From a virus (taxonomy: Duplodnaviria; Heunggongvirae; Uroviricota; Caudoviricetes), in IMG/VR virus record IMGVR_UViG_2541047868_000004: DNA of 39,543 bases, one strand, 5' to 3'. A program made the translations under genes and the position numbers. Shown here in pieces: positions 1,295-23,044 of the stretch. A model generated the notes under the pieces. That model was not told the DNA's origin, did not search any database, and worked only from the letters and a program-made list of their open reading frames with translations. Within the stretch, counting starts at the first letter, position 1. Every line of letters starts with the position of its first letter.

Positions 1295-3469
1295 TCATTT
1301 CACCACCCAACCAGAATTCCAGCGACCTGATTCTTTGATGTAGAGTCTTCCATTTACGATATCTCGATACTCGCTTCCAGGTGTGGCTATTTGTACTCCT
1401 TCAGGATTTCCAGTGCCAGCAATTATACTGTAACTAACGTCTGTGGCTAAATTCCTAACAATGTTAGCAGGAGGGTAAACGTTATCTGCAACAATAATAT
1501 TTGAGCAACTTGCTGTTACATCTACAAAAAACTCATTGCTTATCGAGTTGTGATAACAGTTGTTACTAATCACACCATTTTTAGCAGATGAATCAATACC
1601 TATAACTGCGTCTCCAGCTACAGATTCAAATGAATTTGATGTCACAGTGAATCCGTGGCATTCGCAGTTAATATGGACAGCTCTTCTTCCGTTCATTGCT
1701 GTATTACCTACAATTGATATGTTTCTACTTAACAAAGTTCCTTTGTATTCGCCATCATCCTCAAATATATAGAATATCGCCTTAGCCGTATCAACTTTAT
1801 TGTTGCTTGCAATCACATTAGCAATGTAATTCCCTCTAAGGAATATCCCATTACATGAATCGACTGTGTTTCCAGTGATGGAAACTCCGTCAACCCATCT
1901 CATATCAAGAATGAAGCCATCACAGGACTCAAAATTATTTCCTGATATCCTCCAGTCTCTGTGAAATATTCTACTACCTTCCAATCCGCTCTCAATAAAT
2001 GTTGGTGTAAGGCATGATATCACAGACTTTCCAGTGCAATTTTTAAATGTATTATGATGTATACACACATCTCTTGATGTTTCCCGAAGAGTTGTGCTTA
2101 CTTTCCTCCCGGTAAATATTATTGCTGGATTAGTGAAATTTATAAATGTGTTTGAACCAATGTCAACATTTTCCCACCTAGAAAAGCCACGAATGCCAGA
2201 ATAAGAATTACCATCAAAAGTACAATGGTGGATTTTTATATCAATAACTGGCTGCGCTCCATCTGTTGAACCGTGATTCCCTACGCCAACAGCCCATGAC
2301 GGTAGAGATTCTGACGGTCCAAAATAACAACCAGACACTTTAATGCTAGCGATATTATCATTGCTGGACAATGGTGTTTCAATCTGAATAGCATCTGAAA
2401 AACCTCTGTTACCTGCCCAATCCATAAACCCCATAAAACGGCAGTTTTCAATATTAACATTTCTCACGCGAGACAAGTCTATAGCATGCGCCCCTGAAAC
2501 ATTAAGGAATGTGCAATCCCGAAATATAATCCCATTAGTAAAAACAAATTCAAATATACTGGCTTGGTTTTTGTATATATTGCCATTGTTATTAAAAACA
2601 CCACCAAATACAGATATATTATTACCACATTCGACTTCAGATGTGTATATGCAAGCAAATGTATTTACACCTGTGTCTGAATTATCAAAAGCACGAATAA
2701 TAGTTGCACCTCGTAGATGTAAACTTGTGTTTGAGTATATCATTATTTTTTTTGTTATTTTTATAAGCCATTCACTACGAAAAGTTAAATTCAAACATCC
2801 GTTTATCTTTGCGATATTTAAAGCATTCTGTAAGGCATCGCTATCGTCGCTTACACCATCACCTGTAACCCCAAACCATGACGGTGAAACCTCATTCCCG
2901 TAAACCCTCTTCCACCTTCTACCGTTAAAACCTACAAGAATTGTTCCGTCATTATCTTCTGATGTCGTATCTGTTGGGTCAGCATAGAACACCCCATCAC
3001 CGCCATCGAACAAATTATTTCTTCCATAACAGATTATTTTGTCATTTGTGCCATTATATGAACGTATGTCTGTATAATTACCACCTCCTAAATACGATAC
3101 CCCGTCAATCTGATTTAGTTTCTGCTGAAACATGTCTGGATCATACTTCAGCACATTAGGAAAATAGAATTGCTGCGCACCATACGCATCATAAACAGCC
3201 ATAGAATGGCCTTGCACAGTTACGAACTTGGCAATCTGTCCGTTATATACCGGATATCCAGCAGCGTTAATGATGATTGGTTGAGAAACAGGAACGTGAG
3301 ATCCATCTTCGTTCTCTACATAAACCTGAATCTGGTTTTCAGGATTTACCGGGTCAGTATCAATTTTACCAATATAAATTTTGCCATTGGCTACAGCTTT
3401 AAAAGAACGAGCCATAGTGAAGAGTTGCGAAGGCATACTCACTACAACATTGGCTGTAATGTCTGTCAT
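1295..3469 (-). CDS. Tailspike protein: P22 gp9-like N-terminal head-binding domain plus divergent beta-helix receptor-binding domain
   Basis: 724 aa; first ~110 residues ([11 protein letters not shown]...[15 protein letters not shown]...NVLKYDPD) closely match the P22 tailspike head-binding domain; the remainder is Gly/Asn/Ser-rich, consistent with a parallel beta-helix. Confidence 0.85.
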
Positions 3470-20214: not shown

Positions 20215-20652
20215 TCATCGAAGGCATTGCGTCCTGATGTATTCCTGCAGATAGTTAACTTGCGCGGTTATCTTGTCGATTCCACTTCGGAGACGGTAAT
20301 AATTGAGTTCAGCATCTGCTGTAAGTCTTGGGCTTTCTCCATCGCCCATGCTGCTGGCTCCGGTCGTTGACTTTGCACAGGTGGCGGCGACTTGCAGGCG
20401 CTTACGCCCAGCAGAAACATCAGCACGGAGACTTTCGATAGTCGCGTTAGCATCAGCAAGCTCCTTTGTGTATCTGGCGTCGAGTTCTGCTACATCACGT
20501 TGACGCTTCTGCATGTCAGCGATAGTGGATGCGGCTTTGTCGCGCTGCTCTTTGTAGGTCATGGCGTTATCACGGTAATGATTAACAGCCCATGACAGAC
20601 AGACGATGATGCAGATAACCAGAGCGGAGATAATCGCGGTTAACCTGCTCAT
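20215..20652 (-). CDS. Rz: Spanin, inner-membrane subunit (Rz)
   Basis: N-terminal TMD, coiled-coil periplasmic domain; ATG 20652 overlaps endolysin stop (ATGA); ORF track extends to 20664. Confidence 0.8.
20268..20459 (-). CDS. Rz1: Spanin, outer-membrane lipoprotein subunit (Rz1), embedded in Rz in another frame
   Basis: Embedded ORF with lipobox LLGVSAC followed by Pro-rich segment ([13 protein letters not shown]); actual start probably the internal Met preceding the lipobox. Confidence 0.6.
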
Positions 20653-21152
20653 TGCTGCCCCCACAAACAGACTTCACGCTCAATATCGCGACGGGTCATC
20701 AGCCCTTTCCATTGCTTACCGCCAGCGTATGTCCAGCGGCGCAGCTGGTCACATGCGCCCTTGATATCGCCCTGGTTGATTTTGCGAAGAAGCGTCGATG
20801 TTCTGAAATTGCCAGCCCCCACGTTGTAGACGAACGAGTAAAGAGCGCCGCGCGTTGTTTCCGGTATATCGACTCTGATGTACGGGTTAATTTGTCTGGC
20901 GACAGTGGCAAGGTCTTTATTCAAGAGTGCTTTGCATTCTGCTTTGGTATACGTTTTACCGAGCATGATGTCTTTTCCTGTATGCCCGTGACATACAGTC
21001 CATACACCAACAATATCTTTGTATGGTATGTAGCTGACACCTTCCAGACCATCGTTACCACTTGGTCCAGTGATTAACACAGATGCTATAGCAATAGCCC
21101 CGCCACTTATCGCCGCTATTACGCTATTTCGTAGTGCCGGTGACATTGCCAT
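20649..21152 (-). CDS. SAR endolysin (T4-lysozyme-like muramidase, phage 21 R-type)
   Basis: 167 aa; N-terminal signal-anchor-release domain ([17 protein letters not shown]) then lysozyme catalytic region; near-identical to P21 R as recalled. Confidence 0.85.
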
Positions 21153-21327
21153 TCAATCTGTCCTCGCGCTCTTTGCGCTTGTAGTACCAGTTGATGCCAA
21201 ATGTGCCGACAGTACAAAGAATACCAATGATGACAGCCCAGTCATTCAGGGAGAGAATGCCACCCATCGCAGTCAGTCCTCCGAAGCTGTAACTGAACCA
21301 TTCTCTGATTTTGTCCATACGGTACAT
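21124..21327 (-). CDS. Pinholin (class II holin, S21-like) with dual-start motif
   Basis: 67 aa; MYRMDK dual start; two TMDs; basic C-terminus; paired with SAR endolysin. Confidence 0.75.
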
Positions 21328-21818
21328 GCTCTACCCCTTCATTGAGGGGATTTGCTCTATTTAATTAGGAATAAGGTCGATTACTGATAGAACAAATCCA
21401 GGCTACTGTGTTTAGTAATCAGATTTGTTCGTGACCGATATGCACGGGCAAAACGGCAGGAGGTTGTTAGCGCAACCTCTTGCTACCCGCTTTCACGAAG
21501 GTCATGTGTAGAAGGCCGCAGCGTAACTATCACCGATGAATTCATGATAGCCAGTGGCTACGGCTCAGTTTGGATTGTGGCGACCGGTGCTGATCTCCGG
21601 TTTGCTGCAACTGCCTACAGCGGGCTACGTGGCCACACCGAATCCAGCGAAAGATTCTTGCCCTTACACATCAGCCTGTGCATTCACCACAACGATAAGA
21701 GCACTGCGCGGCACCTTTCACCAATTCCGCGAGGTCTGCGGGTTCAATGCTCTTACCTGTTGTGCAAATAAAAAAGCCACCGTTGCAACTTAAGAGTCAC
21801 TAACGGCAGCTTACATCT

Positions 21819-22331
21819 TTAAACGGTATGATATTTCATTCTGGCGGCCTCAAAAGCCGCAGCGGCAAGTTCGGCAGTATCATGGTATCCAAGGTTAATA
21901 CACTTTCCAGACGCATTAATTCTTGCTCTCCATTTCCCGTACTTAGCATCCCAAGACACGCCACGGTATCCAGATTTATTATTCTTCTGAATTTTCCTGT
22001 TCTGCATATTTTCGGAATGAGTGACAAGACGAAGATTTGATATCCGGTTATCTGTTCTTACCCTGTTGATGTGATCAATAAAACCATCGGGCATGGTGCC
22101 ATAAACAATCAACCATGCCAGTCTGTGAGCAGGGTATGCTTTACCATTAATCATAATCATTAAATACCCATCAGAATTTATTGATGAGCATTTCTTGAAA
22201 GCAAAACGAGAGTTCCATGTCAAAGTGGTCCTCTCTCTTCCCCGCCTCCATCTCCAGTGAAAGTCGCCTGATGATGGATTGTAATCAACAACAGAAAGCA
22301 CCATTTCTGGCGTTAATTTTATTTCTTTCAT
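21819..22331 (-). CDS. Free-standing HNH endonuclease with AP2 DNA-binding domain
   Basis: 170 aa; HNH motif (AHRLAW…DHINR…DNRISNLRLVTHSEN) and AP2 region (SGYRGVSW…KWRARI); between Q/tR-prime and lysis cassette. Confidence 0.8.
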   Translation of the reverse strand: MKEIKLTPEMVLSVVDYNPSSGDFHWRWRRGRERTTLTWNSRFAFKKCSSINSDGYLMIMINGKAYPAHRLAWLIVYGTMPDGFIDHINRVRTDNRISNLRLVTHSENMQNRKIQKNNKSGYRGVSWDAKYGKWRARINASGKCINLGYHDTAELAAAAFEAARMKYHTV

Positions 22332-22453
22332 CGCTTTACCTTAGGGATAGAGCCTGTTCGCGTAGATATGACAGCCAAGAGCGGAGCGATGTTTCCACCA
22401 CCATATCTCAGGCCCATATCACTAAGACTCTTGTTTTGATTGCACGCGAATGC

Positions 22454-22478
22454 AAAAAAGCCCACAGGAGGTGGGCTT
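22454..22478 (-). terminator. Intrinsic terminator ~50 nt downstream of Q (tR-prime-like, end of short late leader RNA)
   Basis: Minus-strand AAGCCCACCTCCTGTGGGCTTTTTTGC, perfect 6-bp GC stem plus U-run. Confidence 0.7.
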
Positions 22479-22525
22479 GTGATGGTTGCTGAATGCAAAA
22501 GCAGCAGCATATGTGAATATTATGG

Positions 22526-23044
22526 CTAAATGGCTAATTGCATGTCAAGGCTTTTAACAGCAACATGCTTAACTTTCTCAACACGTTTACGCATTTTGAA
22601 AGCATTTTGCATTGGTTGGTACAAAACAAATAACGACGCTTTCAGGATGTCGTCAATTTCGTTTCTACAGGTTGCCAGTGAAGGTTTTCTCCATCCCTCG
22701 CCACCACGTCCACACATCTTGCGTGGCTTTGCAGTCGCGTGATAGTAGGATGCAATTGCTCGCTTAGATGAACCATGAGCGTAGTAGCTGAGGAGGATGC
22801 CAAAGGCTTTCTTGTCAATGTACATGACGGAATCGACGACCTGAGAAATCAACATTCCATCATCATCATTACACATTGGCCTTGTCATAACTCTTCCCGG
22901 CTCTACGCTCTCCATGAACTTCGCTATTACGCTGCTCATGCGCTTTTCCAGACGACCTGAATAAACCCATGCGCCCCACAGCTCAAGCCAGCCATTCAGC
23001 CAATCGTGCTGTTCTTTGGTGAGGTTTAGCTCTCTTATGCTCAT
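22526..23044 (-). CDS. Late-gene antiterminator Q-like protein
   Basis: 172 aa; position after ninH and before late terminator and lysis genes; Cys-containing basic protein; family assignment by position and general resemblance, not verified. Confidence 0.6.
   Translation of the reverse strand: MSIRELNLTKEQHDWLNGWLELWGAWVYSGRLEKRMSSVIAKFMESVEPGRVMTRPMCNDDDGMLISQVVDSVMYIDKKAFGILLSYYAHGSSKRAIASYYHATAKPRKMCGRGGEGWRKPSLATCRNEIDDILKASLFVLYQPMQNAFKMRKRVEKVKHVAVKSLDMQLAI

Follow-up and report, generated by a model that had tools for sequence, protein, structure and literature searches.

Conserved RNA modules, one of them tRNA-shaped, form the leader of a Q-dependent phage late transcript

What occupies the bases between an HNH endonuclease gene and the holin gene of a tailed phage, where no protein seems to be encoded? 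The question is raised by IMG/VR virus record IMGVR_UViG_2541047868_000004 (Caudoviricetes), a stretch of 39,543 nucleotides that was analyzed whole and is called the window here. Positions 21818..21328 of the window, 491 bases read on the minus strand like all genes in this part of it, had been described in an earlier note as about 490 bp without a convincing open reading frame (ORF), and that description holds. On the minus strand, the sense strand of the interval, there is no ORF of at least 30 amino acids, and the two antisense ORFs that cross it (75 and 79 amino acids) have no Pfam match; the idea of a hidden gene was dropped on these grounds. Instead, conserved RNA modules make up the interval, which serves as the 5′ leader of the late transcript that depends on Q. 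In order of transcription these are a relic terminator, a long bulged hairpin (LBH), a tRNA-shaped RNA named the KL element, and a lambda-type holin leader (S-leader), and this structural description is held with high confidence. Coordinates of window features refer to its minus strand throughout.

The earlier note had left room for a segment without conservation, and this is not what was found. The 491-base interval is 95-100% identical in 175 phage records, and a leader of the window type occurs at 95-100% identity in 1417 of 5426 complete Escherichia coli genomes, with 100% identity in strains 317 and 04-00955; no RNA feature is annotated over the interval in any of the listed matching records. 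The 497-nt leader is also strongly folded, at −187 kcal/mol vs −150 kcal/mol for shuffled sequences (z = −6.4), with none of 100 shuffles as good.

The KL element (21571..21694) is a 124-nt RNA supported by a family model (R1), minimum free energy (MFE) folding, and covariation. Its closing stem of 9 bp pairs GUUGUGGUG (21693..21685) with CGCCACAAU (21582..21574), including two G-U pairs in the window. Inside this stem lie a D-like hairpin at 21681..21666 (GCACA-GGCUGA-UGUGU, loop GGCUGA) and a T-like hairpin at 21601..21583 (ACCGG-AGAUCAGCA-CCGGU), separated by a variable arm. The loop pentamers GCUGA and UCAGC are complementary and give a 5-bp Watson-Crick kissing helix. The topology is that of a tRNA: the closing stem abuts the 5-bp T-like stem, the D-like hairpin begins 3 nt past the closing stem, the two loops contact each other, and the free-form arm occupies the position of the anticodon arm.

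When the viral collection was searched with a pattern taken from the 3′ part of KL, more than 70 distinct sequences of a common design were recovered. Each opens with GUUGUGGUG and AAU; there follow two 5-bp hairpins, the first with loop GGCUGA and the second with loop AGAUCAGCA, set apart by 6 to ∼180 nt of variable sequence. The second hairpin runs straight into CACCACAAC, the pairing partner of the opening strand. The window copy has the 9-bp stem and AAU link, as well as D-like and T-like hairpins with complementary loops (G-GCUGA and AGA-UCAGC-A). It scores 90.6 bits against model R1, whose seed alignment includes it, with every helix intact, and the MFE fold of the isolated element is the same as the comparative model. 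The smallest member (L217) has only 66 nt, with a 6-nt link in place of the variable arm. The AAU junction and the loop positions G, AGA, and A are nearly invariant across the family.

Compensatory substitutions support this structure. Among the 50 distinct sequences of a first data set, 96.8% of the cells in the paired columns are paired, and 10 base pairs show double changes (43 cells), a result reached by 0 of 500 shuffles. Four of the five pairs of the D-like helix covary in this set, and that helix was not constrained by any search pattern. Because the first pattern had a fixed T-loop, four further scans were run that required a mutated D-loop pentamer and left the T-loop free, and the 54 model hits were aligned as a second data set, in which the kissing helix was counted as a pseudoknot that is absent from the search model. 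Here 14 pairs have double changes (113 cells), and the covariation score is 0.302 vs 0.103 for shuffled alignments, again with 0 of 500 shuffles reaching it. Eight of the nine closing-stem pairs and three of the five kissing-helix positions covary. In the kissing helix, D-loop ACUGA accompanies T-loop UCAGU in 14 distinct sequences (G-C to A-U), GCCGA accompanies UCGGC in six of seven (U-A to C-G), GUUGA accompanies UCAAC once (C-G to U-A), and UCUGA accompanies UCAGA once. Compensatory changes are therefore seen in all four KL helices, including the pseudoknot.

Several sub-types depart from the common loops. HK75-type phages have the KL scaffold at the same place and with the same closing stem, fitted with canonical tRNA loops (GCUC-AAUGGC-GAGC and GCCGG-UUCGAUU-CCGGC; 27 bits), and this variant is called by neither ARAGORN nor the Rfam tRNA model. 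The HK75 variant at L003 2122-2255 and 13 similar loci carry an insert of ∼76 nt at the anticodon-arm position. Lambda has a reduced form closed by UGUGCUG/CAGCACA (∼21 bits). A short-loop sub-type has D loops GCUAAG, GCCAG, or GCUCU with T loops AAGCA, AGGCA, or AGGAA, and a 3-bp loop-loop pairing is possible there (GCU:AGC, GCC:GGC); its loci are L151 11275-11402 (minus strand), L297 7221-7348, L162 4280-4408, L175 3552-3675, and L135 4413-4551. Across the sub-types a change in the D loop goes with a change in the T loop, a further indication that the two are in contact. As a separate observation, the variable arm of the window copy contains at 21626-21618 (the UGUGGCCAC region) a second UGUGGC that could pair with the closing-stem GCCACA, and this alternative is the pairing present in the MFE structure of the whole leader.

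The second covarying module, LBH (21688..21765), lies immediately upstream and was recognized by homology to lambda, covariation, and MFE folding. Its 18 bp with one bulged A join a 5′ strand at 21765..21748 (CACAAC-A-GGUAAGAGCAUU) to a 3′ strand at 21703..21688 (AGUGCUCUUAUC-GUUGUG) around a 40-nt cargo (21747..21704). The MFE fold recovers the hairpin (z = −4.2), which has a dG of −36 kcal/mol as a whole, and lambda carries LBH right after its own tR′ terminator (NC_001416 44788-44864). In 27 distinct stem variants, 96.5% of the cells are paired and 7 of 18 pairs are changed on both sides, with 0 of 500 shuffles as good; as a control, sliding the partner strand lowers pairing to 38-65%. On the transcribed strand, G-U occurs in 55 cells and A-C in one, an asymmetry which means that the transcribed RNA, rather than duplex DNA, is what selection acts on. 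The cargo inside the stem varies among relatives, with 27 or more different sequences that are 31-172 nt long. In Rfam searches at permissive E-values with the window, the canonical KL locus L128, and ten related loci, no family was found for LBH or KL; the same searches matched real tRNAs and one sub-threshold hammerhead only.

The two modules share a strand. GUUGUG (21693-21688) serves as 3′ strand in the lower stem of LBH and also provides the first bases of the KL closing stem, and for this reason the two helices cannot both be complete. In L151 and L297, which belong to one lineage, three strands have changed together (CGUAAC, GUUGCG, and CACCGCAAU); this co-change hints at ordered or alternative folding, with the hint coming from a single lineage.

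A tRNA-shaped RNA in this position invites comparison with tRNA genes themselves. The earlier note had found no recognizable tRNA cloverleaf and had suggested a structured RNA or degraded tRNA remnants, and it had named the Q-to-S interval as a cargo site. The first of these points is borne out by the detection tools: ARAGORN called no tRNA in the window at default settings or at 90% thresholds and gave only noise-level calls at 80%, one of them inside the HNH coding sequence, and Rfam returned nothing meaningful on the interval at E ≤ 10, including no match to RF00005. As a positive control, the same tRNA tools detected the tRNAs of phage BTP1 at 55-61 bits. The cargo-site description also stands. 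When 124 related IMG/VR contigs were fetched with a 23-mer of the conserved downstream block and sorted by what lies between tR′ and that block, tRNA-Asn and tRNA-Thr filled the slot in 65 of them, as in BTP1. The remaining contigs have a common framework with variable contents, and module junctions coincide with the ends of conserved blocks.

These neighbors lend something to the idea that the interval consists of neutral, decaying remnants of former tRNA genes with no present function, since real tRNAs fill the same slot in sister phages, ARAGORN places a weak 'tRNA-Cys' call at 21775..21682 with the 80% threshold, and the lambda version is reduced to ∼21 bits. The weak call, however, is no better than the one inside the HNH coding sequence, the window KL scores 90.6 bits with all helices intact, and the family-wide compensatory substitutions are a mark of purifying selection on structure that already contradicts decay. 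The remnant explanation is thus scarcely credible, and of the earlier suggestion the structured RNA is retained, with two covarying modules, while the degraded tRNA is not: KL is an intact member of a separate tRNA-shaped family whose helices are kept by compensatory changes.

Ribozymes occur in the same slot. Complete type I hammerhead cores (CUGANGA...GAAA, with a GUC or GUA cleavage triplet) were found in four relatives, inside LBH at the cargo start in L068 (7921-7967, minus strand), L097, and L160, and directly 3′ of the KL element in L177. The match to Rfam Hammerhead_1 is 24.7 bits (E = 0.001), below the 34-bit gathering score, and the stems differ among relatives through compensatory changes; the window itself has no match to the hammerhead model (RF00163). 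Because hammerheads lie within LBH or after KL in these relatives, one and the same site holds, in different phages, any of four kinds of RNA-cleavage signal (tRNA, tRNA mimic, long double-stranded stem, or hammerhead). For clustered prophage hammerheads, the proposed role is to divide long phage transcripts into shorter mRNAs (Perreault et al. 2011, PMC3088659). The company of hammerheads, together with a compact pseudoknotted fold and nearly invariant junction nucleotides, might suggest that KL is itself a new class of self-cleaving ribozyme. This is very improbable, given that KL resembles no Rfam ribozyme family, that a tRNA-like architecture accounts for the fold, and that the commonest neighbors of KL are real tRNAs and not ribozymes.

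The distribution of KL reaches well beyond this slot. By model R1, several phage types have one copy in the interval that separates Q from the holin-endolysin pair, and copies also precede a terminase gene and a tail gene. A further copy lies in the early region of CPS-53-like prophages, and this sub-type is present in 848 of 5426 complete E. coli genomes and at 237 places on plasmids, with no annotation. In a T1-like phage, 99 nt separate KL from a downstream tRNA-Met, and in a Pseudomonas D3-like phage KL is flanked by the nin region and the holins. Same-strand arrays of KL with real tRNA genes occur in many contigs, including P1-like phage-plasmids. The P1-like phage JL22 (L393, ON018986.2) has four KL-family copies at 2499-3316 between tRNA-Thr and tciA, in the order tRNA-Asn, tRNA-Thr, four KL copies interleaved with LBH hairpins, tciABC, and tRNA-Met, and the copies lie on the tRNA/tciABC/ban strand. 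The annotated JL22 ORFs 'plp' and gp76 run antisense over the KL copies and may be mis-called.

A BLAST search with the minimal KL matched 163 GenBank phage records, whose hosts are Klebsiella, Escherichia, Pseudomonas, Salmonella, Aeromonas, Erwinia, Hafnia, and Burkholderia; the feature under the matches is 'none' or a hypothetical protein, and KL is annotated in no record examined. A genome-wide pattern scan gave mostly chance matches, with about 15 of 93 loci confirmed by the model, and among species-representative genomes the model confirmed KL in Enterobacterales, Aeromonas, and one Methylobacillus metagenome-assembled genome. Rfam 15 has no family matching KL, and the core strings were not found in the literature searched, although a description elsewhere is possible; the family is probably undescribed. 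The small RNA svsR, StxS, and the anti-sRNAs AsxR and AgvB were considered as candidates for KL and set aside, being located elsewhere or of different form.

Arrays of this kind bring to mind stable-RNA genes, and KL could accordingly be a gene for a trans-acting small RNA, in which the scaffold would see to processing and stability, the variable arm would act as effector by pairing with or binding a target in host or phage, and the leader would merely supply transcription. The arm can be anything from 6 to ∼180 nt long, and copies of a single array have different arms on a constant scaffold. Three to four copies stand among tRNA genes as stable-RNA genes do, and short RNAs from this lambdoid region can regulate, for example StxS (PMC7547250) and anti-sRNAs (PMC4104026). 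Nevertheless, L217 has no variable arm at all, and many KL copies are single and sit directly in the 5′ leaders of operons. A trans-acting role is unlikely on this balance, if still worth keeping in view.

The last 243 nt of the leader raise a different doubt. The S-leader (21328..21570) is nearly invariant in alignments with lambda, HK629, HK75, CUS-3, and BTP1. It corresponds roughly to lambda 44945-45185, being ∼95% identical to the lambda sequence upstream of S, and is common, at 95-99% identity, to phages with different Q types and different holin types. It starts with a long imperfect hairpin of ∼20 bp (21515..21564; dG −24.3 kcal/mol, z = −4.3), and its other end has a small hairpin, CCCCUCAAUGAAGGGG (21334..21349 by folding), close upstream of the start codon of the holin gene. 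The two holin types have different versions of this pre-start hairpin at the same position, which is that of the stem-loop upstream of the lambda S gene (the sdi structure). In four relatives (L006, L025, L110, and L132), the hairpin at the S-leader start precedes a U-run and, beyond it, a different holin module; in these phages it is terminator-like and marks a mosaic junction (alignment columns 57-70). A further helix favored by the MFE fold, GGCAAGAGG.../...CCUCCUGCC, varies inconsistently and is not claimed.

Covariation in the S-leader is uninformative because the sequences are too similar, and it is here that an explanation at the level of DNA has most to offer. By this account the conserved blocks are boundary sequences or linkers kept by homologous recombination between mosaic lambdoid genomes, with no RNA function. 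The CUS-3 record labels the S-leader a 'bsq3 boundary sequence' and annotates bsq3 and bsq4 exactly at this region, the S-leader is nearly identical over differing Q and holin modules with no usable covariation, and the module junctions fall at the ends of conserved blocks. The same account leaves unexplained the compensatory changes in the four KL helices, pseudoknot included, and in LBH, as well as the 55:1 excess of G-U over A-C on the transcribed strand, and phages that stand apart from the lambdoid mosaic (T1-like, P1-like, and Pseudomonas phages) have KL as well. Recombination is therefore improbable as an explanation of the leader as a whole.

The upstream end of the leader records an insertion. 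The earlier note had drawn attention to a second minus-strand hairpin with a U-run, and the hairpin is stronger than was described: at 21766..21812 it forms 17 bp (dG −19.8 kcal/mol, z = −5.4) followed by UUUUUUAUUU. An internal bulge hid it from a simple terminator scan, and the stable, GC-containing hairpin directly before a U-run is what is expected of an intrinsic terminator. The comparison with related prophages that the note had proposed shows the insertion history of the locus together with its cargo slot and covarying modules. In an alignment of the Q-to-holin interval of the window, HK629, HK75, CUS-3, and BTP1, all five phages are identical through the −10 hexamer of the late promoter pR′. 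In HK75, CUS-3, and BTP1, the hairpin comes directly after pR′, and the HK75 record labels its orthologue Tr′. The window and HK629 have ∼700 bp inserted exactly between the −10 hexamer and the tR′ hairpin, comprising a different initial transcribed region, a terminator (t1), and the HNH gene; this cassette is absent from HK75, CUS-3, and BTP1, which are collinear apart from that.

By homology, the hairpin at 21812..21766 is the original tR′ of the late promoter, stranded downstream by the cassette. The cassette was inserted exactly after the −10 hexamer, so that the original tR′ now lies 3′ of the HNH gene, and as a consequence the late transcript meets two tandem terminators with the HNH gene between them. 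The relic tR′ is predicted to act as the second of these, behind the HNH gene. The first, t1 (22452..22478), was found by terminator scanning and folding and had been noted earlier at 22454..22478; it is real, with an 8-bp GC-rich stem (22478..22458) followed by U6 and a dG of −12.5 kcal/mol, and the HK629 record annotates it as a rho-independent terminator. The same record places a 'putative pR′' downstream of t1, a placement that is probably wrong.

The promoter itself (TTGACA-18 nt-CATAAT, 22519..22548; 11 of 12 sigma-70 matches in a promoter scan) overlaps the end of the Q gene (Phage_antitermQ in Pfam, 23044..22526) and the repeats AATTAGCC/ATTTAGCC, which are of the type bound by the Q protein of phage 21 and sit just upstream of the −10 hexamer. 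The phage L genome paper assigned such repeats to Q proteins of the phage-21 type as their binding element, with the transcript starting ∼15 bp past them (PMC8022706), and the putative Q-binding element of the window is assigned by comparison with that analysis. The same Q protein and the same Q-binding repeats are thus followed by two unrelated initial transcribed regions (window 22452-22525 vs L003 1995-2045), because the HNH cassette begins right after the −10 hexamer. This position raises the question of where the sigma-dependent pause element for Q loading is.

The genes around the leader are of familiar kinds. The cassette gene (HNH-AP2, 21819..22331) is homing-endonuclease-like, with HNH_3 (2e-18) and AP2 (1.6e-8) matches in Pfam. 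The first gene behind the leader encodes a class II holin (21124..21327; Phage_holin_2_3, 4e-21), and it is followed by an endolysin gene (21152..20649) and an Rz-like gene (20664..20215).

What the modules may do is proposed more guardedly than what they are. As a tentative account, one that may well prove wrong, they are cis-acting signals that would cut the late transcript and protect its ends. Q-modified RNA polymerase would read through t1 and the relic tR′. RNase III would then cut the LBH stem, whose 18 bp plus bulge amount to about the two turns of double-stranded RNA expected of a substrate for this enzyme. The tRNA-maturation machinery would recognize KL as it does the real tRNAs of the sister-phage slot, with RNase P acting at the 5′ side of the closing stem. 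The promoter-proximal leader would in this way be severed, and the lysis and late mRNA would keep a base-paired, protected 5′ end; as an alternative outcome, KL might be released as a stable small RNA. The title of a 1988 paper (Daniels et al., Virology 167:568, cited as ref. 49 in PMC7547250) places RNase III processing sites in the Q-mediated late transcript of lambda.

Several points weigh against this account. The function is drawn solely from anatomy and genomic context. KL is not recognized by ARAGORN or by the Rfam tRNA model, so that it has no detectable cloverleaf, and it has no conserved 3′ CCA or discriminator: after the closing stem the window reads CGCCACA-A-UCCA, and other members read ACCCA, ACCAA, ACAGC, or otherwise. 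GUUGUG is contested between the lower stem of LBH and the closing stem of KL. The search patterns fixed parts of the KL sequence, and invariance in those parts is not evidence. For the S-leader, which is conserved without usable covariation, a DNA-level cause such as recombination between mosaic genomes is a serious alternative.

A leader with these features could also be a cis-acting transcription element, either an RNA that modifies polymerase in the manner of put or a Q-independent regulator, and KL and LBH are indeed promoter-proximal in long operons with internal terminators. However, the window already has Q with its binding site, which in principle would be enough, and tandem arrays of up to four KL copies among tRNA genes are ill-suited to a polymerase-loading site. 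A put-like antiterminator was tried and rejected: model R1 has no match at E ≤ 0.1 in the whole genome of HK022, which has known put RNAs, the put sites being unannotated in the HK022 record used. The Q-independent regulatory element that the earlier note had floated finds no support in anything found here, and the second hairpin is no extra regulatory device but the original tR′. The transcription-element explanation is extremely improbable.

Transcript processing provides the preferred frame for a broader proposal, for which belief falls only just short of doubt. KL would be an unrecognized class of phage tRNA-shaped RNA, with a kissing helix for its elbow and a free-form arm for its anticodon arm, and together with LBH it would form a modular processing island at the head of phage operons, whose interchangeable parts cut and cap the transcript. 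Lambdoid phages and P1 are among the best-studied genetic systems, yet KL is unannotated in all of the records examined. If KL is a tRNA mimic for RNase P or related enzymes, the alternation of tRNA, tRNA-like element, RNase III stem, and hammerhead would be explained, the old report of processing in the lambda late leader would become testable, and lysis and late gene expression would be suggested to depend on leader cleavage. Likely mis-annotations, such as the antisense ORFs over the P1-like KL arrays, would be corrected, and a family would be added to RNA databases.

The leader can be compared with several known systems. The lambda late leader (pR′-6S RNA-tR′-leader-S, ∼44590-45185) has the same order of promoter, short terminated RNA, leader, and holin, with a homologue of the LBH stem, a KL-like domain after it, and a homologous S-leader. 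The window differs from lambda in having a Q of the phage-21 type, a terminated RNA of ∼60 nt vs 194 nt, an HNH cassette that duplicates the terminator, a different LBH cargo, and a full KL (90.6 bits) where lambda has a degenerate one (21 bits). The late-leader tRNA-Asn and tRNA-Thr genes of P22-like and Stx phages (BTP1, Sf6, L) occupy the same slot between tR′ and S-leader on the same strand. With tRNA genes KL shares its topology, a stem that abuts a T-like stem, a 3-nt link to a D-like hairpin, and a loop contact, whereas it has no anticodon arm or conserved CCA, its loops have 6 and 9 nt, and the loop contact is a 5-bp Watson-Crick helix instead of the canonical D-loop/T-loop contact.

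A further comparison is with the tRNA mimics, including YrlA, tmRNA, the tRNA-like structures (TLS) of plant viruses, and mascRNA, which are likewise non-tRNA RNAs with an acceptor, T-arm, and elbow shape and are often handled by tRNA enzymes. None of the Rfam families for YrlA, tmRNA, and TLS matched KL, and to our knowledge a kissing-helix elbow with a variable arm in place of the anticodon arm is not found in YrlA, tmRNA, TLS, or mascRNA. LBH, a long and nearly perfect double-stranded stem around a variable cargo, resembles the RNase III stems that surround rRNA in rRNA operons and those of T7 R1.1, the lambda N-leader, and sib; it differs in a stem sequence unusually conserved for a purely structural signal and in being so far a predicted substrate. 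The clustered prophage hammerheads (PMC3088659) are comparable in that relatives have type I cores at the same site and in a proposed cutting of transcripts like that suggested here, although the window itself has no hammerhead.

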